Source of the DNA: Antedon mediterranea
Taxonomy: Eukaryota; Animalia; Echinodermata
DNA length: 64,000 nucleotides
Assembly: GCF_964355755.1 (NCBI RefSeq)
Contig: NC_092672.1
Span: forward strand, 10,106,001-10,170,000
Direction: 5' to 3'
Shown here: positions 6,888 through 46,630 of the stretch, piece by piece
Numbering within the stretch: the first letter of the stretch is position 1
Layout: each line of letters opens with the position of its first letter
Position numbers and translations under genes: made by a program
Notes under the pieces: model-generated
What the model saw: only the letters and a program-made list of their open reading frames with translations
Database searches by the model: none
Told to the model about the DNA's origin: nothing

Positions 6888-7007
6888 TTAGGCTTCATAA
6901 TGACCAGGAAAGAAGAACAGTTTTTTGGTAAGCATGGTAACAGGTGCTGGCATCTGTTTGTTACGGCCAGAAGAAGATTCAAATGCACGAGCTACTTTGT
7001 TGTTCAC
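6888..7007 (-). CDS. CASP9: Caspase last coding exon: VNNKVARAFESSSGRNKQMPAPVTMLTKKLFFFPGHYEA*
   Basis: KQMP...LTKKLFF C-terminal caspase motif; tttatag|GTG acceptor; TAA at 6890-6888. Confidence 0.95.
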   Translation of the reverse strand: MNNKVARAFESSSGRNKQMPAPVTMLTKKLFFFPGHYEA

Positions 7008-13000: not shown

Positions 13001-16000
13001 AATATATTAAGCTTACCATTGTAAGCATAGAAAGTAGATCCTCTTCACGTGCATGCTGTAGAAATGTTTCAGTAAGAGCTTGCACAAACCATGAACCTCT
13101 CTCTGAATTACGCCATGATACATAACCTAACAAAATAAAAATACAATAAATAATATTATAAATAACATTACCTTACACTCTGGTGTTAGTTCAGGACTTT
13201 ACGCAGGTTGGAAGAAATCAGCCAGAGCTGAAGTTGATATAATTACTTCAAAAATCGTTCTTTCCGAAATGTATAATTTACTTTCAATATCAATATCTAC
13301 TAACAATTATTATTCTTTATGATCAACAATCACTGATATGATAATCAGTCGGTTGAGAGTTCAATGACTTTAAATGATTTGATCACCGATATCTGACACA
13401 GATCGTTTAGTTCGGGTTAATGAATTTACGTTAAAGCTTCTGATACTAAATAAACTTTTTAATAATTCTTTATTTTCAAAAGACATGAGATGAGATATAA
13501 AAATGCTTTGGAAGCACAAATTCAATATTGATGACTATTGCGCAATTTCTTACTTGGGTTAGTATACAAATAATGAATGTTTATGAGTGCAATGGTACAA
13601 ATAATGGCACGAGGTGAATGATGAAAGGTTATATCAACGAGGCAAAGCCGAGTTGATATAACCTTTCATCATTCACCAAGTGCCATTATTTGTACCATTA
13701 CACAAATACAAAACATTCATTATTTGTTTTATATAACATCTAGACGTTTTTTTTTCGTACACAAAAATGTTTCAAAAAGTACTATTTAACGATCGTTGAA
13801 TAGTGCGTACTATTGCACGCCATGTGACCCACATTCGTCCAATCAAATGACAGGAATTTATATAGGTGTTATATAAAACTAAATAATGTCTAGTCAAAAA
13901 TCTATCAGCTTAAGTTTGCTAAAGGTTGAACTAAGCTGGGACAGTTGCATTGGATAAAAGCATGGTTGTTGTGACTTGACAAGATTCTATAGATTAAAAG
14001 TAGCTTAGACAGTGTAGACTGGCACAGCTGCATAGGCGCAGTTAAAGGCATGGTTTCTGTGACTTGGCAGCTTAGACAATATGGAATAGAACAGCCTTCG
14101 GTAAAACAACATTGCAATGTAAACTATCAAATATGATGAAACTGTTGATGTAGTCAAGAGCGAAATACATGTGGTATTATTACACACAGTACCTCTACAA
14201 GATTGAGCGAGTGTTATTTCTATTGTGTAAACAACGTTGTGAAAACGGCCGATATTGAAGTTGAGCGTGAAAACGAGAGCAAGCACAGTTGCATAGGCAC
14301 AGCTAAAAGCATGGTTTACGTGCTTGGTAGTTTCTAAAGAGAGTTCTTACATGGCACAGTTAAAAGCATGTTAATGTGGATTGACAGCTTTAAATGTGTC
14401 ATTACCTGGTAGTTACATGGCTAATAGCATGTTACTGTGGCTTTAAATTACAGCTAAAGTGTGTTCTTACCTGGTACAGTTGCATAGGCTAAAAGCATGT
14501 CACTGTGGCTAGGCAGCTTAGATATTTTGCTACCAATTGCATCTGTTTCATCAAATTCGATTTTCAACATCCTATTAACAAGATTCTCTGGATTATCAAC
14601 ATCTCCATTAATGTTTAGGGAATGAATATCAGGATCTACGGAGGAGCCTTCATTTGCCGATGGTCCATCCGTGGCTTCAACGCCTTGATCAAACATTTCT
14701 TTAAAAAAAATTTATATTTCCAGTGAGAAAATAAAATAAAAAAGACAGCTTTACTTTGAAACATTACACTTTTTGGGAGAAAAGTGATAAAAAGAAGAGT
14801 TCGAAACTCACTAGCACTATGATTCTGGTTGTAGAACATAGTCTTCTCTTTCAAGACGAGTAGGAGTTACCTTGGTGTACTAGTTCACACACAATGCAGT
14901 GAGGACATTATCTTTGAATTTATATAGCAATTGACAATTTCTACGCATGAGAAATGTGATGCATGTAACCATTATAGTTTATGTTATAATTCTATTAAAA
15001 TAACTGGAAATTGGATAATAACAATTGCAAACGTTGATTTCGCATGTTACTGTACATCTTTGTAGAATACTTTTTAAGCAAGACAATTTGCATGTATAGA
15101 ATAATAACAACTCTTTAGTTTCTATCTAATCAAAGCAGAAGCCAAGTAAATCCATTGTCTCTATCAACTACAAGTGTCAAGAATTAATTTTCAGATAAAT
15201 TCTTTATTTTCAGGTTGGTTTATTGAGACAAGCATTTACATCAAAATATATTCTCCTCTATTTTAAATTCAAATCCGTCTAAATTTTTCACAAGTAGTTT
15301 TCATGAGGTGAATCTCTTTGTACAAACATTTATGCAGAAACATTTCACAAAATACAATTAATTTTTCAACTACAAGTGTGAATAACCGAAGTGTAGACGA
15401 TAAATTAGATTTGATTGCATGCTAAAGTTGTTAGCTATTTTTATAAGCGGTCAATAACATTGTTAGATTTTACAGCAAAGAAAAACAAAAAAAAACAAGA
15501 GTAAGTGAGTGAGTAATAAGAATTTGTTTGATAGAAATACGTAAATTCAAAAATACGCTTTACAATAATTGATGGGCTTTATGGATGTAATATGCATATA
15601 ATAATGTATTATTTTCTATCAGCATGGTTGACCATGCATGGAATGTAAAATTTTGTAATACCAAGGTTGACTCTGTACATAGTTCCAAGGTGCCGTTTAA
15701 GACTATAGAATTGAGAGGTACAGTTGATATGCGGATGGAAAACACTGGTTTTCACAAACAAAAAACACTAAAACAAAAATATTTCATAGTCGGTATATAT
15801 CATGTGTATCACATGCAGTGCATGTATTATGCAAGGTCAGGTTAAGGTTTTGGTCTATGATATTGGCTGTATTCACCAACCACACTTGAAGTGAGATATT
15901 TCTCTTAAATATTATTTAAGGTGCAATATCTATACCTGATGTGTCTAAATATGTTTTTAAATAAATAAAAAGTATTTCTCTTAAATTGTATTCACTTCAT

Positions 16001-19000
16001 TCAAGTGTTTCTCTTAGACTAAGTGTGAATGGTGAATACGGCTACAGCTGCACAGTTGACCATGCTGATAGCCTTATGTGTTTTATTACATCCACTCACC
16101 TCCACGGCAGGCTTGGATGAAAAAAAGCTTTGGTTTACCAGTCAGGGATGGGCAACTGTCTCCAGTAAAACAATTCTGAATATCATCTACTTTGATGAGC
16201 CGTTCGTCCACACTGTACAAGGCACCATTCACACCATGAGTGAGCACGGCAATGATGAAGCAATCATACCGAGAATGATTCATTGTGCTGTAATGCCTCA
16301 ATTTTTTATAAAAGTCCTAAAAAATATTAAATTTTGAATTGAATTTTAAAATCAAGTTTTCTTTCCATAAGATTTCAATGTAACTATAAATTTAAATTAG
16401 TTTAAGGATGTGCATTTAACTGTGTTCAACTGTGCATTGGCAAAAGTGTGGATTATCATAATGCATATGAATTGCATAGTGCATTATTAATGCATAATGT
16501 ATGATGTATTATTATAATTAAATACATAATGCATGATAAATAAATTTGTACTGTATAATGTGTACCGGTAATTAATGCATAATTCATGATTTTCAGGAAG
16601 CACACAATTGATTTATATTATTCAGTAGTTCAAAGACATACATTGTACTTGAATTCTAAATCCTTTTTTGTTCAGTTGTCATACGTGTACCTAGCACCCA
16701 GTGAGAGTATGTATTTCAAGTTTACAAATTATAGGTGCTGTATGAGGTAGGAAGTGATGGTGTGTTTCTATGTAGCAGTGGTAATTGGTGTCGATGTGCA
16801 TTACTGGAAATAGAAGAATAATCCAGCAAAATTGCACCATTAAACCATATTTTGTTTCCCTTCTCTAATTCATTCAAATAGTTTGTATATTTCAAGTGGT
16901 CAAAATATAATTCAGGACAAACCAATGTTCATTTTGGTAGCTTTTCAAAACTGATAACAAATTTATATTCAAGAATTGGTTTTAATTTCAAATTTTAAAT
17001 ATTTGAAATAAATAAAAGTGAAGAGGTAAATTATTTATTGTCTTCAAGCTTAACTGGAACCAGATTACAACGAATATTAAATAAAGTAGGTAGGATCACA
17101 GGATCTAGACATAATTTGGATGACATTTGCAACAAAATCATAAGAAATAAGGCTATGAAAATATGCGACGACTCAAACCACCCTTTAAATAAACATTATG
17201 TTAAAATGAGATCAAAAAGACTAAATGTGCTGAGATCGTGCAATAGTAGGGTTATGCGATATTTTAATTCTTTTGTTCCGTATTCTATTAGACTGTTAAA
17301 TGATTTTGCATAATTTTTGAAATTTTTTATGTATTGCAGCTTTTTATTTTTTATTTAGTTAATTGTAGTCTTATGTTCATACTAAGTACATTGTTAAATA
17401 ATATATAGTATTTTTAAATATTGTAATTAATTTTTTTTATATGAAACGTTTTTATATATTTTTGTACAATTTTGTGAAAAGCACTCAAAATATTTTCCTA
17501 TGTGGACGAAATAAAGTTATCAAATTTGTATCAGATCCTCTAGGGTCTCACAGCAGTCGGCAGTGCAACGCCTACCAATATCCGGAGAGATCAGGAAACA
17601 ATATTCTACTCTTTTTGAATAGTGTACAGAGTTCTTCAACATGCCCTATGTGTACACGGGACCAATGGCTTTACGTCCCATCTAAAGGACGAGGCAATGA
17701 CAGTAAAGCATTTTGCCTAAGGATACAATCAGTATGGTACAGATGGACATGGACACATGCTTGTCCGATTGTGTTACTATCATTACACCATCACTCTCCG
17801 AACTATGGTGATCTAACAAGAAGCTGTGTTTCAACCAATATGGCCGTTAAATACTCACACTATATGTTGAATTTGTAAGATTTTCAACCTCAAATGCTAA
17901 TTGAGTAAACAAACATTCAAGCTGTCGAGCATCCACATCGGTTCCTTTTCGTAACGGCATCGATCGGAAATTACGATTGTTGACTATCAGCGCTTTCCCT
18001 CTAGGCTTTGATTTGATTGTGTAGTTCTGATGAAAAAAAAAAATTAAAAAAATCTCAGTAGTAGCATTTATAGTACAACAATTATAGCAGCTTTCTTAAT
18101 AAAGATAGTACGGTTTCTTGGGTATGACCATACTGTAGGGAGCCCTCTATTGTTTGTTGTAAAAAGAGAGAATAACATGGACATCAAACAAGACTGTTGT
18201 AACTGAGCCTACAATGTAGGGTTGTTTAAATAATGATTCAGTTCCAAAATCACGGCTACATAGTGTAGATTATCTTTGAATGTACTGTCCATTTGTAGGC
18301 CTAGCAGAAAATATTTTAAATCCATCAATTTACATTAGAATTTCTATGCTTTCAATTTAATGATATTAATTTATATATGATAAACTTTTCCTTTTCCTGG
18401 ATTTAGAGTATGAACAACTGATCGAAATACTGCAATCTTAAATGATATTGTTCGTAAAGGGCCAAAGGCATTCCGTGCATTAGCAGAGTCGTTGTTTGCT
18501 ACTGAGATGTACCATCTAGCTACACTTTTAATACCAGACCTTACTGAAGATACATTGTACGATTTAAGCTATTATGAATTTGAAAATGATACCAAAGCAC
18601 CTATGCAACCAAGTGTTGGAGACAAGCCACCTGTGCAGCAGAGTGTTGCAGAAGGCAGTGGAGATTTTAATCCCACACGCAAGTTTCCGACTGGATTTAC
18701 ATTTTAATTAATATTTTAATTGTTTATAAACTTTTACAACTACTGTTGAGGGTGCTGCATTCACAGCTGGACTCTATACATAATGTGAACACATCCTTGT
18801 ACAGTATGTATTCTATAATTTCACTGAACCAAATCTAAGAATAGTGTGAACGCAGCTAATACATATACACTACCTGTGGACTATCGGTCATTTCACTTGT
18901 ATAATTTCCTTTACTCATTTTCATTTGTAGAACTTCATCTGCAGTTTTCTGTGGCCAAGCTAAATATAGGGTGAAGAGTAATGGAAATATGTATTACAAA

Positions 19001-21389
19001 AAAGTAATAAATTTGTGTTTTTTGTTTACATGTATAATAAGCAAATTATCAAAAATATGATTTAGTATAATTAAATGAATTGTTATAATTGGAACTTGCA
19101 CTCCTTGACCATGGTCTTGAATGTAAAGTTCTGTCTACACTATACTAACTAGTTTGACAAAAAAAATGTGATGTTCCCAAATGTGGTAATGATATGACAT
19201 TAAATCATGTCCATATATGGGCACATCACATGTTTTTGTCACATAAAGTTCAGGGCCGTAGCCAGGATCTGTCAAGGGGGGGTTCGCACACTAAGTATTT
19301 TGGTCACCCCCACCCCCATACCTACCCCCCCCCCCCTGGGGTGGGGCCTGAGGCGAAGCAAATTTTGTTAAATGACACCCCTAGATGGCCGGAAAATACA
19401 CTCTCATGCAGCATGCTACCAATGAGCAAAACGATCGTACTTGGACTCGTGGACTATTTAAACGATAACATTTGTTGCCGTATGTTAGATGCGCGTGCTC
19501 TGTGCGGAACCGCCGATTTTTTTATCATTTACTCGATATTTTGTTTTGCGTTCAAGTTCAATGATAACGTACGTCTAGGAGAAGCCCCGAAAAAAGCACA
19601 CTGGGTGAAGGCAAATGCAATTCTTATTATAGCTCTATCAATAATATTTATTTACAGCAATTTGTTGAGGAAATTAAATATGCCAATGTAAATAGGTGAT
19701 ATTGATACATTTGAGTACGTATTGGCTGGTGGTCTAGAAAAAAATAATCGGATGCCATAATGTGAACTACAGTACATGATACCATAGATATTATAGTGTA
19801 AAATATTAATATTCACTATAATCCTCTATGATACATTATACTTCATAGCCACACATAAATACTGATGTATGTCGGAAGGCTATATACTTTATGCATGCTG
19901 CCTGACCGCCAGTGATCTAAACAATTGGTACGCAGTTGTCTGGCGGTGTTCTTTGTACGAATCGTTCGTCCCCCAGCTCGCTGTGAGACGCGTCAATATC
20001 ATGTTACATGCAGGGACCAAACATTTATTTTTCAGGTTAAAATCGGCAATTCATTTGCAACTCTTAGAAATTTACAGACTATATCGCTCGAAGTACGCTC
20101 ATACAGGGAAGAAGGTACTGTATGAGTTATTCCGAACGAGTTTACGAATTTTTTAATTTACGAACAACTTTTTGTACTGTGGGGCACGTATTTGGACGAT
20201 TTTCGGAGATGAGGGTGAGGTATTGGGCATGTCGGGGATGGGGGTTCGCAGTCGGTTAAGGGGGGTTCGCTGTAAAGGGGGGGTTCGCCCGAACCATAAA
20301 AACCCCCCCTGGCTACGGGCCTGAAGTTTGATAGTGTAGACAAGGTTTAAGGCAAGTTTTCTATATAGGATGATTTATAAATGCAGGTCCAGTGTACACC
20401 TGTGTACCTTTAGGAAGTAAGGGGTTGCCCTAATGTAGTGATGCTGTCGCAGTAGACAAATGAGCGCTGTTTGAGGCAGCTGAACACAAATTGGACCTTT
20501 TAGCTATAAGATGGCATTTAGTCCAGTTGCACTTTGAGACAGTGTTATCTATCATTTTTATCAATCAATGTTATTATTATCATCTACATTACCCTCTGAG
20601 ACTTGCGTCGGAAACTTGCGTGTGGGATTAAAATCTCCACTGCCTTCTGCAACACTCTGCTGCACAGGTGGCTTGTCTCCAACACTTGGTTGCATAGGTG
20701 CTTTGGTATCATTTTCAAATTCATAATAGCTTAAATCGTACAATGTATCTTCAGTAAGGTCTGGTATTAAAAGTGTAGCTAGATGGTACACCTCAGTAGC
20801 AAATAACGACTCTGCTAATGCACGGAATGCCTTTGGCCCTTTACGAACAATATCATTTAAGATTGCAGTATTTCGATCAGTTGTTCCATTCATACTCTAT
20901 AACAACAAATTATGAGAAAATATTACAATTTGACTTGTTGTTTGTTTGTTTTTATTATATATTTTACATTCAATTATTTTATAAAATATTTTGAAAACAT
21001 AATACTTTTAATAGTCATGCTATGCCTAGTATCCAGATTATTATGTTGGCATAAATGGTTTTTATACAATCAATTTTTCTCATTTGTCCAATTTTAAAGA
21101 TTGTAGAAAAGTAAAAAAAAAGTGTTAATTTTCTAAAACAATATTGTAGTACAGTTTACTGTATGTTTAGTTTCATTATAAGAGTAACCAGTATTATATT
21201 TCAATATAAGAACACGTATCTTTTGTATTATTATTGGGTTATAAAAACAATCCTACAAACCCGGTATTTTTCATCTTCAGATGTATTAAAAATTTGTCTA
21301 GCCACTAATTCGTTCAAGATATCCATGGGCATATCGCTAACTAATGTTATACGATTCGTTCGCAGAATCTTCTTGTGTGCAGCTTCCAT
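6888..21389 (-). CDS. CASP9: CARD-containing initiator caspase, caspase-9-like, ~453 aa. Eight coding exons: 21389-21261, 20896-20593, 18959-18874, 18026-17859, 16316-16100, 14698-14471, 13126-13017, 7007-6888
   Basis: All junctions are GT-AG and phase-consistent; the exons sum to 1362 nt ending in TAA. N-terminal CARD (MEAAHKKILRTNRITLV...RKGPKAFRALAESL). Large subunit: KPRGKALIVNN, RKGTDVD, catalytic His in VLTHG, Cys in GKPKLFFIQACRG. Linker DETDAIGS. Small subunit: [33 protein letters not shown]...KQMP...LTKKLFF. Caspase-9 rather than caspase-2 is judged from motif resemblance only. Confidence 0.92.
8265..8691. mobile_element. MITE/foldback element with long TIRs and internal 21-bp GGCGGCCG-containing tandem repeats
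   Basis: TACGGAAGCCCGTTCGGGCCACAAGTTAAC...GTTAACTTGTGGCCGAACAGGCTTCCGTA; flanking direct repeat TTTATG; left end duplicated at ~8449. Confidence 0.85.
9094..11219 (-). mobile_element. Non-autonomous TIR DNA transposon (~1.07 kb family), outer copy, interrupted by a second copy
   Basis: Termini CAGGCCCGTAGCCAGG...CCTGGCTACAGCCCTG; 5-bp TSD TAATG (9089-9093, 11220-11224). Confidence 0.92.
9588..10636 (+). mobile_element. Same family, inner copy in opposite orientation
   Basis: CAGGGCCGTAGCCAGG...CCTGGCTACGGGCCTG; 5-bp TSD TGTAT (9583-9587, 10637-10641). Confidence 0.92.
11880..12305 (-). mobile_element. SINE-like remnant (Nin/Deu-domain-like)
   Basis: GGTTCTTTAAAGTGC...CACGGGAC...GTTTATAGTTCTTATCTGAGAAAACT...CCGCTAGGCCA pattern (recognition only). 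Confidence 0.4.
13017..13126 (-). CDS. CASP9: Caspase exon 8: [37 protein letters not shown]
   Basis: Substrate-binding S-W-R and GSWF motifs; ttgttag acceptor; ATG|GTAAG donor. Confidence 0.95.
13565..13735. repeat. Long palindrome, probably a MITE
   Basis: AATAATGAATGTTT...GAATGATGAAAGGTTATATCAAC / GTTGATATAACCTTTCATCATTC...AAACATTCATTATT. Confidence 0.7.
13905..14460 (-). repeat. Degenerate tandem copies of the 3' end of caspase exon 7 in intron 7
   Basis: Repeated variants of cagttgcatagg-ctaaaagcatg-tcactgtggct-aggcagcttaga. One copy translates SKLPSHRNHAFNCAYAAVP versus exon [17 protein letters not shown]. Confidence 0.75.
14471..14698 (-). CDS. CASP9: Caspase exon 7: intersubunit linker and start of small subunit
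   Basis: ORF 14454..14696 (MFDQGVEATDG...[28 protein letters not shown]); CCAG|GTAAG donor. Confidence 0.93.
16100..16316 (-). CDS. CASP9: Caspase exon 6: catalytic His (LTHG) and Cys (QACRG)
   Basis: ORF 16086..16301; tttttag|GAC acceptor; G|GTGAGT donor. Confidence 0.96.
17050..17520 (+). mobile_element. LINE 3' fragment (L2/Rex1-like)
   Basis: RLQRILNKVGRI...DDSNHPLN...RYFNSFVPYSIRLLN C-terminal motif, then T-rich UTR and AATAAA. Confidence 0.7.
17525..17765 (-). mobile_element. SINE-like remnant
   Basis: GGCTTTACGTCCCATCTAAAGGACGAGGCAA...GCCTAAGGATAC resembles common invertebrate SINE cores (recognition only). Confidence 0.4.
17859..18026 (-). CDS. CASP9: Caspase exon 5: start of large subunit, NYTIKSKPRGKALIVNNRNFRSMPLRKGTDVDARQL...
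   Basis: Canonical caspase PRG-x-ALI-NN and R-x-GT-x-x-D motifs; poly-T acceptor; GTGAGT donor. Confidence 0.93.
18406..18690 (+). pseudogene. Inverted, near-identical copy of caspase exon 3 inside caspase intron 4
   Basis: Matches the reverse complement of ~20608-20897 with a 5-nt deletion and few substitutions; flanked by direct repeat CTGGATTTA (18397-18405 and 18691-18699). Confidence 0.9.
18874..18959 (-). CDS. CASP9: Caspase exon 4: prodomain linker (A)WPQKTADEVLQMKMSKGNYTSEMTDSPQ
   Basis: 86-nt exon (tttag|CT ... CAG|GTAGTG) that restores frame between exons 3 and 5. Confidence 0.8.
19251..20323 (+). mobile_element. Third copy of the 5-bp-TSD family, nested in a small palindromic MITE (~19124-20350)
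   Basis: Same TIRs; TSD AAGTT (19246-19250, 20324-20328); host ends TGTCTACACTAT / ATAGTGTAGACA. Confidence 0.9.
20593..20896 (-). CDS. CASP9: Caspase exon 3: CARD C-terminal half plus linker
   Basis: Within ORF 20561..20893; acceptor ttatag|AGT; donor G|GTAATG; phase 1. Confidence 0.88.
21261..21389 (-). CDS. CASP9: Caspase coding exon 1 (gene exon 2): CARD N-terminal half, MEAAHKKILRTNRITLVSDMPMDILNELVARQIFNTSEDEKYR
   Basis: ATG at 21389; acceptor AG at 21404-21403; donor GTTTGT from 21260; phase 0. Confidence 0.88.
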
Positions 21390-27310: not shown

Positions 27311-27556
27311 ACTTTTCTGGCTGTTTTACTTCTCGTTTTGATTTAGCTTTTCGCTTTTATTTTGTATCTCCATTGAGATCCAGCCACTGATACCCACAGC
27401 ATTGTCATTTTTTTCAGTAATTTGCCTTTGGATTTATATATATTTTCTACTGTTTGTATCAATTTTGATCTGATTTTGCTGTAATTATGGAGGGTACTTT
27501 GGATAACTTTACCAAATTACGTCGCCTATACTATGACGTTATCCAAATTCCTTCAC

Positions 27557-27597
27557 TTGCACTGATGAAGGGCTAGTGTTGCCCGAAAGCTCTGCTA
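27557..27597 (+). ncRNA. Minimal hammerhead ribozyme motif, copy 2
   Basis: GCA-CTGATGA-A-GGGC tagtgtt GCCC-GAAA-GCTC-TGC, with a perfect stem II. Confidence 0.65.
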
Positions 27598-28524
27598 ACT
27601 TTTCTGGCTGTTTACTTTATCGTTTTGATTTAGCTTTTTGCTTTTTATTTTTGTATCTCCATTGAGATCCAGCCACTGATACCCACAGCATTGTCATTTT
27701 TTTTAGTAATTTGCCTTTGGATTTATATATAATACTGTAAAAGAAATATAACAAAGGGAGCCAGGGTGGAGTCTGAATAAGAGTATAAAACAAAGAAGGT
27801 AGCTTGGTAGAGATATAAACAATTTGGAATGAGACTAAAAAACAGCTTAAATGGTGATTAATATTGAAACTTAAATTTTGGTAGTCAATGGAATAATTTT
27901 ACCGATCTGGGAGTATGTTCCTAATGTTAAGTCCAAAAGGTTTTGTGGTTTTAAGTTGTAATTCTCAGTATTTTTCCTTGTCTTTGCGAGTTTTGTCGCT
28001 CCATTTGACATCATGGTCTATTGCAATAACTCTGAAATTTGCAATCGAGTGACCAGCTGAATTAAAATGTTCGGCTACAGGTTGATCAAGCTTTAATGTT
28101 TTGATAGCTGATCTGTGTTGTGTCATTCTCATACGGAGATGTTTTTTGTTTCTCCGACGTACTGTTTGCCACAAATATTACAGTATATGAGATAAATGAC
28201 GTTTTTGGTTAGACAATTAATTGATTGTCTTATCCGAAATATGCGGCCAGTTTGGTTACTCTTAAATTTTTCAGTAGGCAATTAATATTAATTCGAAACC
28301 GCCCGGCGTGGTACGGCGGAACAGCACTAGTCCTCAGTTGTACGCACGCGCACCAGAGATCAAATTGATACGCCCTCATCTTTCTATATTTTTATTCACG
28401 AGGCGGGATCTCCGAAGAGATACTTTTATATATATAAACACATTAGGCAATGAACATTAATTCGAAACCGCCCGGTGATATACCTACATTTAATTAATTA
28501 ATTTGAAACAATAAAGATGAGGAA

Positions 28525-28620
28525 ATCTGTGAAAATGAGAAAAAGTCGCCCCAACAGAGACTCGAACTCGGACCGCCTGCTTGATATGCAGATGTCCTAA
28601 CCATTAGACCACTGGGGCTT
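28525..28620 (-). mobile_element. tRNA-derived (Asp-like) SINE head or tRNA pseudogene, within a ~370-bp direct duplication (28305-28500 / 28670-28900)
   Basis: Minus strand GCCCCAGTGGTCTAATGGTTAGGACATCTGCATATCAAGCAGGCGGTCCGAGTTCGAGTCTCTGTTGGGGCG with A and B boxes; decayed relatives at ~31550-31615 and ~59085-59155. Confidence 0.65.
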
Positions 28621-29127
28621 TCATGGTATTGTTCAAACTCGATTGGATAGCGACTCTTTAACATTCTCGGCATGGTACGGCGGAACAGCACTAGTCCTCA
28701 GTTGTACACACGCGCACCAGAGATCAAATTGATACGCCCTCATCTTTCAGTATTTTTATTCACGAGGCGGGATCTCCGAAGAGATACTTTTATATATATA
28801 AACACATTAGGCAATGAACATTAATTCGAAACCGCCCAGTGATATACTGAAATTTAATTAATTAATTAATTAATTTGAAATGATACAGATGAGGAAATCT
28901 ATATTATATATATATCTTTTGTAACAAATAATGAAAGGTCTGGTTATTTCTTGCATTTTTAATAAAATACAAAAACTATGCAATTTGTTCATGATTAATA
29001 TGAAAAGATATATATTCTATGATTTAAAAGCAGTTGAGTGACACAAGGCAATGCCTGTATAGCACAACTTAAAATTACTACAGCATTGTTCAACACATTT
29101 CACCTTGGTATCACCTTTATCCGATAC

Positions 29128-35100: not shown

Positions 35101-35752
35101 GGTCCCTTAATAACGCACATAGCATAATGTCACTGTGTCGTGATCGTATCCATACACAGTACTGTAGGTAGTTTTTAATACAGTATATTTTGATTACATT
35201 GCATTCACTAAGAGTAACGCATAATTTTGTCTTTTCCCTTAAACAGCAAGTGTGTAGTACACTACATGATCCACTAACTTTTATGTTGGTTCAATAGAGT
35301 TTGCTATGTTTTTCGGAGGTTTGCAGGGTTTAGCAATTAATTTTTAACCAAAAAATGATGTTTTACTCCAAAAATAAGTAGTTAACAAAAACAATTTAAC
35401 ATTAAAAAAAAAATTGAAATATTAGGTGTGTAGTACACTACACGATTCACTAGCTTTTATGTTGGTTCGATGGGGTTTGCTATGTTTTTTCGGAGGTTTG
35501 CTGTGTTTAGCAATACCCCCAGTAAGTTTTGCCAACTTCAAATTATTCTTCAGATTATAGTACAGTTAGAAGTAGTTAACAGGATTACAATGGCAGAAAA
35601 TTCAAAAGAACAACAGTCTTTCTAGATAAATCAAAAAAATTAATAACAGAGCTATGATATACATTACCATCAGCCAAGACTTGTCTTGTGGCATTCCAAT
35701 TTCTACCCCGCTTCTGCAGCACCTTGCTTGTCTCCAACTGGCTGGCTTTCAT
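29128..35752 (-). CDS. Tandem OB-fold nucleic-acid-binding protein (RPA/SSB-like, HIN-200-like), ~316 aa. Exons 35752-35668, 34679-34648, 33887-33657, 33495-33355, 31860-31642, 29816-29746, 29299-29128
   Basis: All junctions are GT-AG with consistent phases (1,0,0,0,0,2); 951 nt, no internal stop. OB signature RRVTIQGKVTMIGE...RRDMVLKNTNSTIKLKLWGEKA...GATFLFTNVEVDMFKQKPELKTTNLTRLE. The two short 5' exons are less certain; an alternative start is Met 33884. Confidence 0.75.
29925..30450. repeat. Minisatellite (TAGGATGTAATTATAATGTAGGTAGTC and shorter variants) in OB-gene intron
   Basis: Directly visible tandem array. Confidence 0.95.
30541..31550. mobile_element. ~1-kb TIR element inserted in a SINE remnant
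   Basis: TACTCTAGTAG...GAGAATTTGACTTCAGAAATTGGTTTAG is inverted at 31440-31550. Confidence 0.7.
32306..32969. mobile_element. Tc1/mariner/pogo-type MITE
   Basis: TACCGTACTGACGCGGGTATAAGC...GCTTATACCCGCGTCAGTACGGTA; TA ends; repeated GGGTATAAGCCCA motifs. Confidence 0.85.
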
Positions 35753-35885
35753 TACTGAAATCATAAAAACTTAACATATAATTTATCTTCAGTGAGGTCT
35801 GATATCTATATAAAGTATGGTTAATTCTGACATAGGCGAGCACAATGCAAAAACCTCGGTACAAATCTGCGCCTTGGATACCTAC

Positions 35886-36210: not shown

Positions 36211-37093
36211 GTATAGTACTGTAGTACATAAAGATCAAATTAAATATATTCATAAAAAATTGGAGTATTATTGTGGGAAATAATTATATAAAATTACATC
36301 GAGAGAATTGATGATAAGAGCTTTTGTTTAAGATCGAATGAAACCCCGATAGCCGAGTTGTTGAGTAAGCTGCCAGGACTCATGGATGGATACTTCTGCC
36401 CATATTGCAAGCCGTCTAAAAGGTCTTCCTTCTTAGGCCAAAACGACTCACTGTGTTGCGGAATAATATGTATTAACTATACCGATTAGAATGGTATTTA
36501 TTTGAATAAACGCCCGGAACACCTCCCCAATAAAACATCAATTAAAATAATTATCACCACTCTCCTCCCCCCCCCCCCCTCCAATACCATCTAATTAACG
36601 CCCATCCCAATTTATACACACAATATTGTATTATATTTATAACACAATTATACTATTTTTTAGTAGATTTCATCGGACTGTTATCTACAATTTACCAAGC
36701 ATTTGTTATTCTTTTTTACCACTTTTCATATCTACAATAAACACTATACGTAAAACGCTATTAATCATCTAAAACACTGTGAAACAGGTTAGTGAGTAGG
36801 TTTAGTTTTACGAATATCAAAAGCATTTAAATAATGGTAACCGATCGAAATCGTCCAGGCCAGAATGTCCTTCTAAAACTTTTTACCAGAGTCACTATCA
36901 TTCCGAGAACCATGGTCTACACTTCCTAGAGGGGGAGCAAGCGAAGCGAGCTCACCCTCTAGTTAATATAAAGTATAGCTAAATGCTGAGACCCAGTAAA
37001 AACAAATGATTGCCGTTTGGTGGCAGCTAAAGGATTGATGCAACGAAATATAATCCACAGCGATTTAAGATGGTGTTTATTATCTATTATTAT

Positions 37094-37863
37094 CTATAAC
37101 ACCCTGAGACTTCTTGTTGGAAACTTGCCTTCTGCAACACTCTGCTGCACAGGTGGCTTGTCTCCAACACTTGATTGTTTGGTATCATTTTCAAATTCAT
37201 AATAGCTTAAATCGTACAATGTATCTTCAGTAAGGTCTGGTATTAAAATTGTAGCTAAATGGTGCGCCTCTGCAAATAATGACTCAGCTAGTGCACGGAA
37301 TGCCTTTGGCCCTTTATGAATAATATTATTTAAGATTGCTGTATTTCGAGCAGTTGTTCCATTCAGACCCTATAAAAAAAGAAATTATGAGAAAAATATT
37401 ACAATTTGACTTTGGAAATTCATCTGTGCACAAGAGATGATTTCTGTTGTTTTTTTATAACATTTGTTAATATTTTGAAAACATAAAAGACATTCTATGC
37501 CTAGTATCCAGATTAATATGTTGGCATAAATGGTTTTTATAAAATCAATTTTTCTCATTTTTCCAATTTTAAAGATTGTAGCAAAGGAAAAAAAGTGGTA
37601 ATTTCCTAAATTAATTTATAATTTTGTAGTAAAATACTGTATGTTTAGTTTAATTACAAGGTAACCAGTATTATATTTCAATTATTTAAGAACCTGTACA
37701 TCTTTTGTATTATTGGGTTAACAATCCTACAAACCAAGAATTTTTCTTGTTCAGATGGCTTAAAAATTTGTCTGGTCACTAATTCGTTCAAGACATCAAT
37801 GTGCATATCGTTAATTAATGACATACGATTCTTTCGCAGAATCTTCTTGTGTTTAGCTTCCAT
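37094..37863 (-). CDS. CARD-only paralogue of the caspase, ~134 aa (exons 37863-37735 and 37369-37094); possible 5' half of a CARD-OB fusion
   Basis: MEAKHKKILRKNRMSLINDMHIDVLNELVTRQIFKPSEQEKFL|GLNGTTARNTAILNNIIHKGPKAFRALAESLF...KFPTRSLRVL*. Splice sites of the first coding intron are preserved; deletions of 3, 9 and 24 nt are all in frame; no catalytic exons follow. Confidence 0.75.
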
Positions 37864-38679
37864 GATTCAGTAAAATCTGTAAATAAATAATTTAATTCTA
37901 ATTATTATTAATTCACTGAATATTTTAACAAGTTTTATTAGAATGAGTTAACTTTTTGGGAACCTTATTCAATCAATATAATAATATTACCATACAGTTA
38001 GTGTTAATATAGTATAATGATGACTTATGACTTAAAAATACAATAAAAATAATACTGTACAGTATGTGTATAGATTATTCACAATTTGATCACTTAAATT
38101 AAAGAAACACAACAATATTTAAACTCTTCTTCCTACACTTACAGTATGTATTGATCAGTAACTATATTCAGTCAGTATACAGTACAGTACCTAACACCTA
38201 TAATGCCTTTCATTAATAATTATTTAAAAAGTACAAGTCAGTCACGATGAAATCAACTTTGGATGGAGCACTGCTTTTAGATACCGCCTAGGCCTAGATA
38301 CTGTAGGCCTAGGCCTAGTACACGATTATTTTTTTTATACTTTTCTTTTAATTTACTTTTTTTTTAAACCATTTGTTGTAACTGGAATCATTTTAAAAGC
38401 ATATTAGTAATTACAGTAAGTACTGCAAATGTAATCTAGGCCTAGGCCTAGTCCTACCGGCCAATCACTCTTCTCGGCTCGGGGTTAAGCTATGCCTACT
38501 AGCCTACACTAACTAAGTACAGAGGCTAGGCCTAGGCCTACTACTACTACCAACAGGGCCCAGCCCAGACAGGGGTGTCACGAAACCTAAGATCACGAAA
38601 GCTAAGACCCAAGAACTAAGATTACAAATAAACACTATAAATCTAGTATAGACTAATGTATTGATAAAACAGCATTTAC

Positions 38680-38850
38680 CTGGACCAATTCTTTAAAAAG
38701 CAAGCAAATTAGATATAAATTCAACTACTGTATTTTAAAGGATATTTTCTGGCGCGGCTTTGTTGCTTTGTTGCTTTTTCCTTTTCTTTACTCCACTAAC
38801 AGCGCCACCAACCACTAACATTAGTCTTTATGGGACGTCAAAAGGGACAT
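38680..38850 (-). promoter_or_regulatory. Duplicated non-coding exon 1 and promoter of the CARD-only paralogue
   Basis: Homologous to 25694-25860; donor CCAG|GTAAAT intact; GACGTCA site. Confidence 0.5.
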
Positions 38851-39026
38851 TATAATTCAATTGTTACAAGAGTCAAGTGTTGATGGTACTTTATGAATTG
38901 ATACAGTTACTAGCTTAAACAATTCATTTTTGTCTATATTCGTAATGTTCTAATTGTTGTCAAAGATAGTGTAGTTTTTATTATTAGTGTACAAACAATT
39001 TAATAGACAAATTCATTCATTTCATG

Positions 39027-40529
39027 TAGAATTTTGTTGGAGACTGCTAGTGTTATTGCGACTCCTTTAGCCCGTCTATTTCAGAGATGTTTTGACGAAA
39101 ATTATGTTCCTCCTTTATGGAAGAAAGCCAATGTTTCCCCTATTTTTAAAAAAGGATCTAAGAAATCACCGGCAAACTATAGGCCTGTTAGTTTAACTTC
39201 CCATTTTTGTAAATTGATGGAATCTGTCTTGAGGGATGACATTATTGATTATCTTGACTCGTTACATTTACTGAATACATCCCAACATGGGTTCTTGAAA
39301 GGAAGATCTTGTCTGACAAATTTACTAATGTTTCTTGAGAAGGTGACATATGATATTGACCAGGGTTTACCAGTAGATGTAATTTATTTTGATTTCCAAA
39401 AGGCCTTCGACAAAGTTTCTCATGTAAGGTTGATGAATAAAGTTTTGGCTCATGGTATTGAAGGTCCATTTGGCATGTGGATACAAAACTGGCTTAGTGA
39501 TAGATCTCAAAGGGTTGTTGTGAATGGTAGGAAATCTGAGTGGGCCCCTGTTCATAGTGGTGTGCCTCAGGGTTCGGTCCTCGGACCGGTGCTTTTTCTC
39601 ATTTTTATTGATGACATAGATTTTTCCATTGATTCTTCATTGTTGAAATTTGCTGATGACATTAAATTGTTTGGAAGTGTGCGTTCCGAGGTTGATCCTG
39701 AAGTACTACAAAATGATATTGACAAGTTATCACTTTGGTGTCGTGAATCCCTAATGAGCTTTAATAGTAGTAAATGCTATGTCATGCACCTAGGATTTAA
39801 TAATCCGAATCATTCTTATGAACTTGATGGGGTTATCCTAAATGAAGTAACAGAACAAAAAGACTTGGGAGTGATTATTGATAAATCTCTTAAGACTAGT
39901 AAACAATGTGTAGCAGCAGCCAAAACAGCTAATCGAGTTTTAGGTACTATTAAAAGATCCATTAAATATAAATCAGTTGATATGATTAAATCGCTTTATA
40001 TTGGATTAGTCAGGCCTCATCTAGAATTTGCAGTCCAGGCATGGTCTCCTCAACTAAGGAAAGACATTCTTTTATTAGAAAAAGTTCAGAGGAGAGCAAC
40101 TAGGCTACCACCTAGTTTGCATGGCATGCCCTATGCAGATAGGTTAAAAGTTTTTAATTTAACAACCTTAGAAGAAAGACGACACAGAGGGGACATGATT
40201 CAAACATATAATTTTCTTTCTAACAAAGAGGCTATTGATAGTGATTTACTTTTTCAAAAGTCTGAATATACCGCCACTAGGGGTCATAAACATAAATTGA
40301 AAAAGAATAATGCTCGATTAAATTGCCGTAGTCATTTTTTTACCCAACGAGTCGTAAATTCATGGAATGCTCTCCCTGCCACAGTACAGTAGAAGTTGAC
40401 ACAACCATACTATTTAAAAGAAAATTTCAGAAGACGAGGGGGGCTAATAGAGGGCCACGACCGGCCCACCAGCCTCTTGCACCACTCATTTAGAGTGGTG
40501 TACGGTGAGTTACGGTGAGTTACGGTGAG
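39027..40529 (+). mobile_element. 5'-truncated CR1-clade LINE with a long RT ORF (39034-40392)
   Basis: NYRPVSLTS, QHGF, YFDFQKAFDKV, GVPQGSVLGP, KFADD, VRPHLEFAVQAWSP; (TACGGTGAGT)n tail; empty site visible in copy A at ~26020-26035. Confidence 0.95.
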
Positions 40530-40796
40530 ATTACACTTTATTGACTAGAGTATTACATTATACAATATCTTCTTAGCCTTTTTTGATTTATTTTTTTTAT
40601 TTTTAAAAGTTATTCATTATAAAAGTTTTACAGTTAACAAATGCAAACGATGGAAAATAAAATCCATGACAAAGTGACATTACAATGAATATATTTATCA
40701 TTACAATAAACTTCCATGTTCCTAGTTTAGGAACATTGCCAAACTGATCACTTACATAACATTAAAAAAGGAACAGAAAATTGGCATTAAAGTGTA

Positions 40797-41520
40797 ACTC
40801 CATTAATAAATTATACCCATCCATAAAGGTGGTGAGGTCTCAAATATCAATAACTATAGGCCCATCTCCATCTTGCCAACTATTTCAAAACTACTTGAAA
40901 GAATAGTTTATGATCAAACTATTTCATTTCTTACAAAGTTTAACATCCTCAGCAATTCCCAGTTTGGTTTTCGTTCCCAACATATCTACAATACATGCCG
41001 TCCATCATTCAATCCATAATATTTTGTCTGCTATTGATAATAAACAATTTACTGTAGGAGTTTTTATTGACCTGTCAAAGGCTTTTGATTGTATTTCTCA
41101 TAATATTTTAATTAACAAGCTACGTTTCTATGGTATAAGAGGTATACCACTTCAGTGGTTCGAAAATTATTTAAGTAACAGCCAGACATCAATTTACATC
41201 AACAATCAATGATATTGCCTCTGAGCTGCGGCCAGTTTCGTGTGGTGTTCCACAGGGATCCATCCTTGGTCCGCTTTTATTTCTGTTATTTATTAATGAT
41301 TTAAATTGTATTAGTGATTGTGCTGAAATTGTTATGTTTGCAGATGATACAAGTTTATTTATTAATCATAAGGACATCTACCAAGCTATTATTTTAATGA
41401 ATCGTGAACTTACTAAAATTGCAAACTGGTTAAAATCTAATAAGCTTTCGTTAAATATTAAAAAAACCAAATTTATTATTTTTCGTTCAGTAAATAAACT
41501 AATCCCCCCCCAACATTCCT
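40797..41520 (+). mobile_element. Frameshifted LINE reverse transcriptase fragment
   Basis: NYRPISILP, FIDLSKAFD, GVPQGSILGP, MFADD. Confidence 0.9.
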
Positions 41521-41571
41521 AAATTTATAATTCGGTTACATTTAGGAATATATTTAGTTATTACCATAATA

Positions 41572-42010
41572 GATTCAATCAATCAATCAATCAATTCAAT
41601 TTTATTTCTCAAATAAAAACAAAATACAGTTACATTTTCTAGAAATAATAGATAATAAATGAGAAAAAGGGTACCCCACTGGAAGCTTAAGCTTTAAAAT
41701 GTGGGGTCCAGGCAACATATTTAAAATTAAGGTAAGGTAAGAAATATATATAATTATATGATAATGAACAAAAAAGACATTTAACTTAACAAATGCAGTT
41801 ATAATTTAACTTAAGACAGATATATTATTAACTTAAACAAAAATAGTAGAAACAAGGTATTCATGTAATTTGAACTTAAATGAAGATATAAAATTAATAA
41901 TTTTGAGTTCTTCAGGTAAAGAATTCCATATTTGTGGTCCTTGAAAAGATATATCATGCTTGCCAACCTCCGTATTAAAACAATCATAAGCATAATCTAA
42001 TTTATTTCTG
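41572..42010 (-). mobile_element. LINE 3' end in inverted orientation with (ATTG)n tail
   Basis: (TCAA)n microsatellite and a GPQIWNSLP motif on the minus strand. Confidence 0.6.
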
Positions 42011-43924
42011 GTATTATAAATTATAAATATTTTATTTTATAATCATAAGCTTGTTTCAAATCCTATATAAATAATCTCGATTTTCTTTGATGAGTTCAAA
42101 ATACGCGCACACATTTTCGAACGGTATGAAATCATTCGGAAATTAAATGTTCATATAAAAATAATAGTAATATCAAATTATGTAAATAAATGATTCACAT
42201 CTTTGCCTAAAAAAAAAAAATAGTTTAGGCCTACTGTTTTTTATAAATTCAAAAGCAAATGAGTAGTGGAGTGGGTGGATCTCGAATACAAATAAAATAT
42301 ATTGCATGCCAAAAATAATAATAAATTGCAGGCCTTACTCAGTATGAGTGTTTATAATAATACAGTATATATATTTAACACCACCCCAGCCACCCGCTCC
42401 ACTTCTGCAAAATGAGGAAAAAATAATGTTTTCTACACCCAACCTGTACTCAGAAGACACGTTTGAGTGTGCCAAATGGTTGATTCAGAGGTCACCAAAA
42501 ACATCAAAACATTTTTATTTATTTATTTTGTTATCTATTTAATACAAAAATGGATATCATGATAATTATGATAATAATTATGATACTTCCTCTGGCTTGA
42601 CAATGACAGTTTTCATGGTGAAACACTCAGAATGAACCCCTTTAAAAATAATTGGGTGCTGCAGGATTTACTGATTTTCAACAACTTACAAACACAAACC
42701 AAAAACCTATTCCTAATACAAAATAGTATTTTGGTTTTTCGTTCCATTTGGAGTAATGAAGGCTGTTGAAATTATTCAATTAATTAATTAATTTAAAAAA
42801 TAAAATATTTGTATATGAAGAAAAACATCCAATAAAAATGTTTTTAAAATTTTCTTCAATAATTATATTTTACATTATAGTAAAATGATTAATAGTAACT
42901 ATCTCTAATGGTTTGCTTCTTTGCACTATCCTGTGGTGTATGAAATGGCAAAACTGCATTTTGTAAACATGGCAACATCACCAGAATACATTAAGTACAA
43001 AATACTGTACAATAAAACTAATTACAGAGCTATACTGGCAGGATAACTTAATTTTAAAAATATAATATTTGTATCTGAAGATCAACATGAACATTTCTCA
43101 TCCAATAAAAATGTTTTTAAAATTTGCTTCAATAATTATATTATTTACATTATAGTAAAATAATTAATAGTAATTAATACTATCTCAATGGTTTGCTACT
43201 TTAAACTATCCTGTGATGTATGAAATGGCAAAACTGCATTTTGTAAACATGGCAACATCACCAGAATACATTATTGCAGTAAAGTACACTACTGTACAAT
43301 AACATTACTAAACTAATATTACAGAGCTAGACTGGCAGGATAATTTAATTCAACAAAAAACATGGCAATTTTTTAGAATCTTTTCTTTTAAAACATAACC
43401 TGTACATAAAAAAAAACTAAACATAATTAAGCGTTTTCATTACAACACAAGCATCTAGAAACAGCGATAATGTGTATCTAGTGCGGCGGCCCATACAAAT
43501 TAGCGCGACTAAAATAAAACATGACTGATATCAACCGTAACTAATATGATAAAAAGCGTATCTAGCTAATGCTGGACTGAAATGTCCTGTATTTGTCTGC
43601 CTCTCCCGGCCCCACCCTTAGATCTGTTTGTATGTTTCCTACAATGCTTACATACATAAGCACTGAATCAATATTGATATAAATCTTTTGTAAAAATAAT
43701 GAAAGGTTCTATGGTATTTCTTGCATTTTTAATAAAACGAAAAAACTATGCAATTTGTTCATGATTTAGTATGAAAAGATATAATCTATAATTTAAAAGC
43801 AGTTGAACAATACAACACAACTTAAATTGATTACAACATTCCCAGTGTTTTAGTGGATACACGTTCCTATAAGGTATTGTGCTCTTGTTGTTGCCCATAA
43901 CAGGAAAAGCAATCCACTGAAACT

Positions 43925-45826
43925 TAATGACGAACGATGCTGATTGTTGTTACTTTAGTTCTGCTGGTCTGCTGTTACGTTGCACTCGACTGGAAATAAA
44001 CTTCTGAATGAATCGATGCCTAGTGACAATGATTTAAACACTTCATGATCACAAATGAGCTGTTTGCATTCTTTTGTTAATAACACCATATGTTCACTGT
44101 CGAAGAAAATGAAAAATAGTAAAGTATGAGAACTTTTGAAATAATTTAAACACGGGTAATGTTTACAGTATGAGCGGTCTAAAAGTTTCATTTAAAATGT
44201 GTAGAAAATTGGTATATAAGAACTCTAGTATTAAAGATGTATTGTTCCTAAAAACACAGAAAATGAAGATTAATATAAAAACATCTACAAAATTACAAGA
44301 TAAAATTATCTTCTTGACTTCCTGTTGTACTGGATGATACCGGAGGGAATAAAGGATTTAGCAAATCGATTTGTTTTCACACTGAGGAGCCTCAATCTAC
44401 CACTTGGATTAAGTTGGTCTATGATCACTTTGTGCAGAGGATGAGAGGCATGCGTTCAAAATCTTTCTGGAGGCGTTCTATGTGCACATCGGTAAAGAAA
44501 GGCAGTTCCAGACCAATCAAATCCCAATTGGCTGCTGACAGCCAATTTTACCATTTTATGGTTTAAATTACACTTGTTTTTAAGGTAAATATATATTTTT
44601 TTTTCGATCTAATTTTTTGTAAAAGTGAATAACTATTATTATGTAACAATAAAATTGCTTATTCAACAAAAAAAATTTTTTTCAGGGGGACAATACATCT
44701 TTAAAAGTCTATCCACAACACCAATATGAAACTGCAAAATGGGACATCACCTAACCTGCTCAGTAAACTTAGATTTACATAAAGCAATTGGCTACAACCA
44801 GATGGATGCTTTCTATATGCTATTGTGAATATGCCCTTGGAATTCTTGTAAAGTGTAAACACATAAATAGAGGAGCAGGGCATTGATAAGATCATATATG
44901 GCAAACAGGTAGCTGTAGCAATGTTTTAAACACTTTATGAACACAAAGAACTCTAGAATTAAAAATGTATTGTTCCCCAAAAACATGGAAAATAGGCCAT
45001 TTGCAGCTTTAATAGGGTATTGCTAAACTGCGCAAACCTAAAAAAACCTGCGCAAACCTCCTCCAAATCACTTATTATTGGTTCTATCATGACAAGGACT
45101 ATCATAGCAAGTAATTAATGAAAAAAAAAATGAGGAGGAGGTTTGCGCAGGTTTTTTTTCAGGTTTGCGCGATTTACACTGTAAAATCTGACATTTTACC
45201 CAAAAAAATGATGGTTTTCGCCAAAAAAAAAAGCCAACTTACAGCAATTTCATAATTTTGTTTTCATAAATTATTTGCTATGATAATCCTAGTCATGATA
45301 GAACCAATAATAAGTGATTTGGAAGAGGTTTGAGCAGGTTTTTTTTAGGTTTGCGCGATTTACACTGTAATATCTGACATTTTTACCCAAAAAATGATGT
45401 TTTTCGCCCCACTTACAGCAATTTCATAATTTTTTTTTTCATAAATTACCTGCTACGACAGTCCTGGTCATGATAGAACCAATAATAAGCCATTTGGAGG
45501 AGGTTTGCACAGGTTGTTTTTTAGGTTTGCGCTTGGTTTGCGTAGTTTAGCAATACCCCTTTAATAAAATTAATCACTTTAGTTGAAAAAAAACACTTTG
45601 TTTTCAATAATAAAAAGACAAAATAAACAGAAGAGGATTATTGAATGATTATTGAATGAATGATAAATAAATCTGCAATTGTAATATAAATACAGGTCAT
45701 ATTGTTTGTATCATTGTTTCAGACTACAGTATTTAGTTTAGCGAATAAAACTTACACTGTGGGATCAATACCATCGATGTTTTGTTTCATAACTGGAATG
45801 TTTTTGTCGGGTGGTTTAGACAGGTT
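43925..45826 (-). pseudogene. 3' remnant (last two exons, 45826-45756 and 44096-43925) of a second OB-fold gene copy
   Basis: Paralogous to 29816-29746 and 29299-29128. A 1-nt insertion gives a premature TAA at 43955. Upstream exons were not found; LINE sequence starts after ~46630. Confidence 0.75.
45013..45560. mobile_element. TTAA-flanked TIR MITE (Kolobok-like) with ~170-bp internal repeats; related remnant at ~35250-35520
   Basis: GGGTATTGCTAAACT...AGTTTAGCAATACCCCT flanked by TTAA. Confidence 0.75.
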
Positions 45827-45944
45827 CTGTAGTACAGTAATTGCAAGCAAAACAAAATTATTATCAATATGTTAAGGAAACGTGTACTTCGGGAGCCTGG
45901 GATGTAATTACTTCGAGAGAAAAGAATGTAACTGTCTAGAATGC

Positions 45945-46630
45945 AGCCTAGGTTTTAATTATGCTAGTCTAGGATGTAATTATAATGTTAGTCTAACATG
46001 TAATTAAAATGTTAGTCTAAGATGTAAATTATAAAGTTAGTTTAGAATGTTTATAATATATAAGTCTAGGATATAAATATAATGTTGGTCTAGGTTGTAA
46101 TTATAATGTAGGTAGTCTAGAATGTAATTAAAATGTTAGTCTAGGTTGTAATTATAATGTTAGTCTATGTTGTAATTATAATGTAAGTAGTCTAGGATGT
46201 AATTATGTTAGTCTAGGTTGTAATTATAATGTAGGTAGTCTAGGATGTAATTATAATGTAAGTAGTCTAGGATGTAATTATGTTAGTCTAGGATGTAATT
46301 ATAATGTAGGTAGACTAGGATTTAATTATGTTAGTCTAGGATGTAATTATAATGTAGGTAGTCTAGGATGTAATTATGTTAGTCTAGGTTGTAATTATAA
46401 TGTAGGTAGTCTAGGATGTAATTATAATGTAAGTAGTCTAGGATGTAATTATGTTAGTCTAGGTTGTAATTACAATGTAGGTAGACTAGGATTTAATTAT
46501 GTTAGTCTAGGATGTAATTATAATGTAGGTAGTCTAGGATGTAATTATAATGTAGGTAGTCTAGGATGTAATTATAATGTAGGTAGTCTAGGATGAAATT
46601 ATGTTAGTCTAGGTTGTAATTAAAATGTAG
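45945..46630. repeat. Paralogous minisatellite in duplication copy B
   Basis: Same unit and same position relative to the OB exon. Confidence 0.95.

Follow-up and report, generated by a model that had tools for sequence, protein, structure and literature searches.

The 64-kb window, by which we mean the whole stretch of DNA that was analysed, carries a full-length CARD-caspase gene (gene A) together with a 5' partial duplicate of that gene (copy B), which is without the catalytic exons. The reading that we favour, at a probability of about 0.5, is that copy B is a 134-residue CARD-only decoy copy of gene A, and that the excess of amino-acid differences in the first coding exon stems from a CARD surface that is under loose constraint, and so changes quickly, in both copies. 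According to this proposal, the 5' part of the caspase gene would have duplicated, with copy B keeping the CARD exons and losing the catalytic ones. Copy B would then be transcribed and translated into a CARD-only protein, which, by analogy with known proteins of this kind, would likely compete with A for the CARD partner of A as a competitive inhibitor, while gene conversion among the paralogues may make the divergence patchy along the gene. The outcome would be a fold-constrained CARD with fast surface change in a duplicating, converting locus. The coordinates of all features are collected in Table 1.

Table 1 Features of gene A, copy B and the exon-2 relics in the window.
Feature	Position	Strand	Evidence or remark
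Gene A coding exon 1, residues 1-43	21261..21389	-	100% match to XP_071945612.1
Gene A exon 2, residues 44-144	20594..20896	-	Match to XP_071945612.1
Gene A exon 3, linker, residues 145-173	18874..18960	-	tblastn 100%
Gene A exon 4, start of large subunit	17859..18024	-	Sequence match
Gene A exon 5, catalytic His256 and QACRG (Cys299)	16098..16316	-	Sequence match
Gene A exon 6, inter-subunit linker and start of small subunit	14470..14699	-	Sequence match
Gene A exon 7, small subunit	13017..13126	-	Sequence match
Gene A last coding exon	6888..7006	-	Sequence match
Copy B coding exon 1, CARD helices 1-3, ATG to GT donor	37735..37863	-	Comparison with A; Pfam CARD
Copy B exon 2, remaining CARD half with a shortened linker	37094..37369	-	Reads on to TAG stop
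AATAAA, 13 nt past the copy B stop	37076..37081	-	Possible poly(A) signal
Copy B upstream block, kept GT donor near 38679	38643..39026	-	Matches 25656-26025
Duplicated segment B	37126..46452		8 blocks collinear with 20641-30456
Copy C, inverted near-exact copy of A exon 2, in the intron after exon 3	18404..18691	+	278/280 nt identical
Copy D, old remnant of exon 2 with frameshift (3' half and donor)	35653..35823	-	1.3 kb beyond B

Gene A comprises eight coding exons on the minus strand, from 21389 to 6888, and tblastn shows that its product equals XP_071945612.1 letter for letter (P0001; record name 'caspase-7-like', Antedon mediterranea, 453 aa). The protein consists of a CARD, a linker and a caspase domain that includes His256 and QACRG, and thereby has the combination of a CARD with p20/p10 carrying His-Gly and QACRG that characterizes echinoderm caspase-9 or caspase-3/9. 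The best matches of the catalytic domain are caspase-3/7, and the matches listed by Foldseek for the gene A model cover the catalytic domain only. The CARD is modelled with a pLDDT of 94-98 over residues 1-90, with helices at residues 3-11, 13-19, 23-30, 36-44, 48-62, 64-76 and 80-86. Among ten matches picked for naming, the closest come from echinoderms, hemichordates and amphioxus and bear the names caspase-3-like or caspase-9-like. Gene A follows the plan of starfish caspase-3/9 (about 452 aa, an N-terminal CARD and a QACRG-type site, with Cys299 against the starfish Cys305), which binds Apaf-1 through its CARD according to PMC5785508. By this analogy, gene A would work like the starfish enzyme, through the CARD of Apaf-1. 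Its layout is also shared by the sea cucumber Hl-CASP9, a caspase-9 with QACRG (PMC9330033). In PMC10959488, caspase-9 expansions are reported in echinoderms and caspase-2 is described as not identifiable in Ambulacraria.

Additionally, several features of gene A and its relatives were observed. XP_071945612.1 is without a 30-residue linker stretch found in two Anneissia isoforms (P0005 and P0008); given this missing stretch, an exon may be lost or unannotated in the second intron of gene A. A second Antedon CARD-caspase (P0010 and P0159), 44% identical to gene A and with a close accession number, is probably a neighbouring paralogue of greater age. The intron after exon 6 holds, at 13936-14442 (minus strand), about five or six decayed repeats of that exon's 3' end and donor, which are possible alternative donors.

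Copy B lies in a duplicated segment that diverges from its counterpart at 9.2% of non-coding sites and is broken up by retroelement pieces. This segment contains upstream DNA, a putative 5' donor, exon 1 and exon 2, and nothing further of gene A; tblastn and blastn found no second copy of gene A exons 3-8 in the window, and past exon 2 copy B runs into unrelated DNA. Exons 1 and 2 together form an open frame of 134 codons, in which the start, both exon 1-2 splice sites (GT/AG), the stop and the core residues are intact. Exon 1 gives a Pfam CARD E value of 0.0094, under the cut-off as a half domain. Exon 2 has three in-frame deletions of 3, 9 and 24 nt, and its old donor is altered. Copy B thus shows two of the features expected of a CARD-only protein of the COP type, namely partial duplication of a caspase without the protease exons and an intact frame over the whole CARD. 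The upstream block, with its kept donor, is a putative promoter and untranslated first exon of copy B. Two LINE-type reverse-transcriptase pieces (39007-40392 and 40810-42036) lie immediately upstream of this putative first exon and could change the putative expression of copy B. The AATAAA word is a weak poly(A) candidate in this AT-rich DNA, where two such words occur per ~800 nt. In protein records, a search at 50-160 aa gave five candidates, none of them a product of copy B or of the third form of exon 1 described below; a search for the same products at 30-248 aa gave one distant match among seven; and in a search at 178-2000 aa, 3 of 138 records matched, none of which was B. In X8, a run presumed to be RNA, the exons of copy B had no coverage, which carries no information on its expression.

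We then compared exon 1 of the two copies. The preliminary description had called their divergence almost entirely non-synonymous, and its counts are borne out: 37863-37735 and 21389-21261 (both minus strand, 129 nt) differ at 19 nucleotides in 15 of 43 codons, a divergence of 14.7%, and each of the 15 substitutions it named was correct on recount. Its statement that no codon differs only silently holds for the codons as such (0 of 15), but the A30T codon hides one silent change. Because codon 30 (GCT/ACC) includes this silent third-position change, path counting yields Sd 1.5 and Nd 17.5, with half a silent change contributed by codon 43. In the CARD half of exon 2, which that description omitted, A and B differ by 6 silent and 9 replacement changes. 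The segment following the CARD is identical in A and B, as had been noted (22 codons, 0 differences over 66 nt), and sits within an identical run of 71 nt; an intron holds an identical run of 76 nt, and the 71-nt run alone is nothing special. R10 and R13 are both present in A and B, as claimed, yet R10 is Gln in a related organism (organism B) and in Anneissia and is not deeply conserved, so its retention in the two copies says little.

To what extent the excess departs from neutrality depends on the test. Pairwise codon models of A against B yielded an exon 1 dN/dS of 3.5-4.9, which is not significantly above 1 in likelihood-ratio tests under three frequency models (p 0.062, 0.084 and 0.143). 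Fisher's one-sided p ranged from 0.03 to 0.21, varying with rounding and transition bias. In a neutral simulation with the local non-coding spectrum (5000 runs for each of two starting sequences), the one-sided probability of no silent-only codon given 19 differences was 0.027, a value that covers one of three coding segments, chosen after the fact; taken together, the nominal one-sided statistics ran from 0.027 to 0.14. The CARD half of exon 2 gave a dN/dS of 0.42-0.59, with a p of 0.03-0.10 for heterogeneity between exons 1 and 2, and the whole CARD gave 1.0-1.3 (p 0.58-1.0). The profile range extends from 0.8-0.9 to above 20 for exon 1 and from 0.5 to 2 for the whole CARD; purifying selection of the usual strength is therefore excluded for exon 1, and positive selection is not demonstrated.

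The non-coding DNA offers a further yardstick, with 272 of 2950 sites differing between the copies, a count that leaves out the tandem repeats above 29870 (323 of 3481 when these are included), and 41 of 340 (12%) in intron 1. The exon 1 replacement rate of 17% nominally exceeds the overall non-coding rate (P 0.005-0.011) but not the intron 1 rate (P 0.06-0.09), and for the non-core codons of exon 1 the p is 0.04-0.07, or 0.08-0.21 once overdispersion is allowed for. Non-coding divergence is indeed overdispersed (window variance 30, mean 11.6). At least 19 differences are seen in 2 of 22 non-overlapping 129-nt non-coding windows and in 14% of 2822 sliding ones, or 5% away from gaps, and the divergence of exon 1 falls within this spread. 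The amino-acid excess of exon 1 is borderline and positive selection is not proven; a mild contribution from it is compatible with the data.

The exon-1 changes were polarised with one close outgroup, the contigs of organism B over exon 1 (runs X5 and X7, partial difference tables), and one distant species, Anneissia, as protein. The organism B contigs reach exon 2 on A at 80% and do not on B at 85%. Codons 1-24 are fixed by ten table rows, and eight predicted differences between the outgroup and A all fit the remaining kinds of change. Within these codons, six changes occurred in B (codons 4, at two sites, 14, 15, 17 and 21), four in A (codons 11, 18, 22 and 24) and four on the outgroup or common stem (codons 9, silent, 10, 15 and 23); X5 and X7 appear, from the counts, to differ at codon 18. 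Further along, codon 36 goes to A and codon 35 to B on one loose contig end, with three more outgroup differences at codons 35 and 37, while the counts assign codon 30 to B and Anneissia assigns codons 39 and 42 to A. The changes are split over both copies, so the intact caspase A has changed about as much as the truncated B.

Intron 1 has 8 private changes each in A and B per 197 sites, and 14 on the outgroup or stem. Tested against these rates, the replacements in codons 1-24 gave p values of 0.25 for A, 0.06 for B, 0.76 for the outgroup and 0.055 for A and B together. Exon 1 is also the fastest region in comparison with Anneissia, with 22-23 of 43 residues differing versus 12-13 of 44 in the CARD half encoded by exon 2 (p 0.03); the corresponding figures are 27-28 of 75 for the linker, 33-35 of 129 for the large subunit and 9-10 of 91 for the small subunit. 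This comparison includes the recent changes of A and hence is not fully independent.

The preliminary description had suggested diversifying selection on the CARD interface in one or both copies. We aligned the CARD of A to that of human caspase-9 (PDB 5juy chain O), and the alignment is weak (E 0.12), with R10 and R13 aligned in both. The type I interface residues of caspase-9 are R10, R13, L14, R52, R56 and I60, with R11 minor (PMC11755718). By this alignment, 2 of the 15 changes (codons 11 and 14) lie at type I positions, and the rest are distributed among loops and four helical segments; as a set, the changes show no clustering on the surface that faces Apaf-1. R52, R56 and I60 fall opposite T49, T53 and N57, residues that A and B have in common, so that the helix-4 arginines are not kept in this register. 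Positions 35-36 belong to the loop between helices 2 and 3, placed by PMC11755718 at the type II surface. Two helix-4 changes of copy B, D58N and R61H, could make its binding weaker. What stands of the earlier proposal is that exon 1 is fast at the protein level with no net purifying signal (dN/dS below 0.8-0.9 is rejected); the elevation above 1 and the concentration on the interface are not supported.

Paralogues outside the window are visible through read contigs only. In sample S1, exactly three contigs cover exon 1, corresponding to A, B and a third form outside the window; S1 may be the source of the assembly and is then not independent of it. The contig depths in X1 and X2 are 266.1 and 44.3 for A, 152.8 and 17 for B, and 135.5 and 24.3 for the third form. 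A contig joint at depth 301.6 had been considered as copy A, a reading dropped once A was placed at 266.1. Relative to A, the depth of copy B is 0.57 in X1 and 0.38 in X2, about half, and B may therefore not be fixed. B and the third form together reach 1.08 and 0.93 of A, which hints that each of them lies on one haplotype, contig depth being a rough guide. The third form, with exon 1, intron and exon 2, maps on window positions 20814-21401 and has 28 differences from A in 170 nt (~16%).

Organism B likewise has an A-like contig (23 differences in 361 nt) and a distant contig (27 in 177 nt), and both run into one exon-1 contig. The intron of the distant contig is mostly unalignable, and its break pattern is the same as that of the third form. 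Paralogues with a common exon 1 point to conversion between old paralogues in organism B. Gene conversion, which the preliminary description had listed as an explanation that would count against its selection claim, thus finds support at this locus, where the A/B comparison also contains a tract of low divergence: in the 3' part of exon 2 (20641-20772), 1 of 123 sites differs, with a permutation P of 0.024 for such a window anywhere. The upstream intron holds a similar tract with 2 differences in 128 sites. Since tracts of this kind occur in the upstream intron too, the identical segment following the CARD needs no special protein function.

Could copy B instead be a pseudogene that has decayed neutrally since the duplication? 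Its missing catalytic exons and altered donor would fit, as would a whole-CARD dN/dS near 1, the lack of a matching protein record in the searches made, about half of A's depth, and the two clear dead relics (C and D) alongside. The way in which the copies differ, however, makes neutral decay unlikely, and we regard such a pseudogene as very improbable. About half of the exon-1 changes fall on the A lineage (with Anneissia used for codons 39 and 42). The 24 CARD replacements between A and B are conservative, with a mean BLOSUM62 score of 0.58 versus neutral values of -0.42 and -0.36 (P 0.0003 and 0.002, respectively). They also tend to spare conserved core positions (P 0.054 and 0.040). The core was defined as the positions conserved in 28 distant CARDs, after 5 of 33 rows had been dropped from the conservation score (P0001, P0005 and P0008 as self or crinoid; P0073 and P0154 with no aligned CARD). 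By lineage, core avoidance gives P 0.027 for the 11 changes assigned to B and P 0.57 for the nine assigned to A. The organism B orthologue is gapless against A over exon 2, so the three deletions belong to copy B, and all 3 of these internal deletions are multiples of three versus 15 of 84 non-coding indels. No stop interrupts the frame, the probability of no frameshift in 390 nt is ~0.01 under neutrality, and copy B retains the start codon, the two splice sites between exons 1 and 2, and the donor upstream. Two small indels at the old donor are out of frame, within the last few codons; with these counted in, 3 of 5 keep the frame. A recent death following a functional period is a possible counterpoint. 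That copy B is simply the other allele of A, misassembled in tandem, is hardly credible: the half depth of the B contigs would suit it, but in X1 the A contig by itself reaches 266, to which B (153) and the third form (135) come in addition, six B contigs match the window with 0 differences, and B enters unrelated DNA after exon 2.

As for exon 1 itself, it is possible, if on the doubtful side, that CARD helices 1-3 are under genuine diversifying selection in A and B alike, with the surface driven to change and the core held; the driver might be, for example, a pathogen antagonist, or A and its decoys tuning their binding. The ratio of silent to replacement changes speaks for it, and dN/dS below 0.8-0.9 is rejected even with replacements filtered for similarity. 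Further, 13 of the 14 changes in codons 1-24 over three lineages are replacements, exon 1 outpaces even the linker against Anneissia (51-53% versus 36-37%), and the third exon-1 form differs from A at 28 of 170 sites and at just 6 of 72 in exon 2. To these come the nominal values from the simulation, the exon 2 heterogeneity, the non-core codons and the joint A and B test against intron 1. Yet no test passes after allowing for the choice of segment, the likelihood-ratio p remains at 0.06-0.14, and the non-core test weakens with overdispersion. The three-lineage P is 0.12 for codons 1-24 and 0.04-0.10 for all known changes, with at least four outgroup differences unplaced; on the outgroup branch, replacements do not outrun the intron (3 of 55 versus 14 of 197); and the changes are scattered over all helical segments of exon 1. 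A conversion mosaic we consider decidedly improbable. On this view an older paralogue would have replaced exon 1 in one of the two copies, which would make that exon more diverged than its flanks, and chance would account for the few silent differences. An older paralogue lineage with the same intron-break pattern is present in both organisms, two paralogues of organism B have exon 1 in common, and divergence along the duplication is overdispersed. An older tract should, however, raise silent differences too, and these are low (1.5 on 26-30 sites); A and B agree against the outgroup at codons 9, 10 and 23, and the private changes of intron 1 are those that simple duplication predicts. A bolder proposal, rather improbable in our estimate, is that feather stars independently evolved a CARD-only decoy system around their apoptosome caspase. 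In it the CARD exons would be recopied time after time, the strongly diverged B and third form would segregate in a single animal as alternative haplotypes, and diversifying or balancing selection would act on helices 1-3 of caspase and decoys alike.

Judged from their sequences, copies C and D are dead exon-2 copies. Copy C has a 5-nt deletion at its start, and two contig depths disagree on its copy number. With copy C in its intron, the primary transcript of gene A would contain an inverted repeat of 280 nt that can pair with exon 2, and such pairing could affect splicing. The window holds no match to a 21-nt motif from exon 2 of the third form, even with 3 mismatches allowed. An 18-nt motif from the same exon matches copy D with 2 mismatches, and 14 of 100 shuffles match too, so the link between the third form and copy D is weak. 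Between the upstream region of A and copy B, frame pieces of a multi-exon gene (31621-33887, minus strand) weakly match the OB-fold of replication protein A (E 0.003, below the cut-off) and are perhaps a transposon-borne gene. Retroelement ORF1-like frames with PHD finger, SGNH/GDSL esterase and endonuclease matches lie at 47417-49042 (minus strand). An element of ~1 kb occurs in three copies of alternating orientation at 9094-11219 and once more in intron 2 of gene A (19243-20323).

CARD-only caspase copies are known as brakes on primate caspase-1. Copy B, read as a decoy, resembles CARD16/COP1, CARD17/INCA and CARD18/ICEBERG of the primate CASP1 locus, which PMC11383037 describes as tandem partial copies with the CARD kept and the protease absent that inhibit caspase-1 by competition. 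Conversion, loss and copy-number change are described there for these genes, and the locus studied here is similar to the CASP1 locus in its near-identity blocks, putative repeated conversion with the parent and copy-number variation, and nearby pseudogene relics (PMC11383037). The parent here is an echinoderm apoptotic caspase of the 3/9 type rather than the inflammatory caspase-1, which argues for an independent origin. With its crinoid parent, copy B is not a member of the CARD16/17/18 family proper, defined by descent from CASP1 in primates, and the likeness is one of analogy only. Unlike these proteins, copy B keeps ~47 residues past the CARD, and its expression and inhibitory action are putative; also unlike them, A and B have diverged in exon 1 instead of being kept alike. 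The Anneissia japonica pair (P0005 and P0008), orthologous to gene A, likewise represents two close copies, but each of the two is full length, and only 3 of the 43 exon-1 residues differ between them. Our literature search, with most subscription journals outside it, brought up no paper on this locus or on a CARD-only gene derived from an echinoderm caspase.

Taken alone, the claim of selection on exon 1 is a borderline signal from two sequences. If copy B works as a decoy, the route to a dominant-negative regulator would be repeatable, here starting from an apoptotic caspase in an echinoderm, and this young pair of parent and decoy (~9% apart) would allow one to ask which changes of the CARD surface alter Apaf-1 binding.
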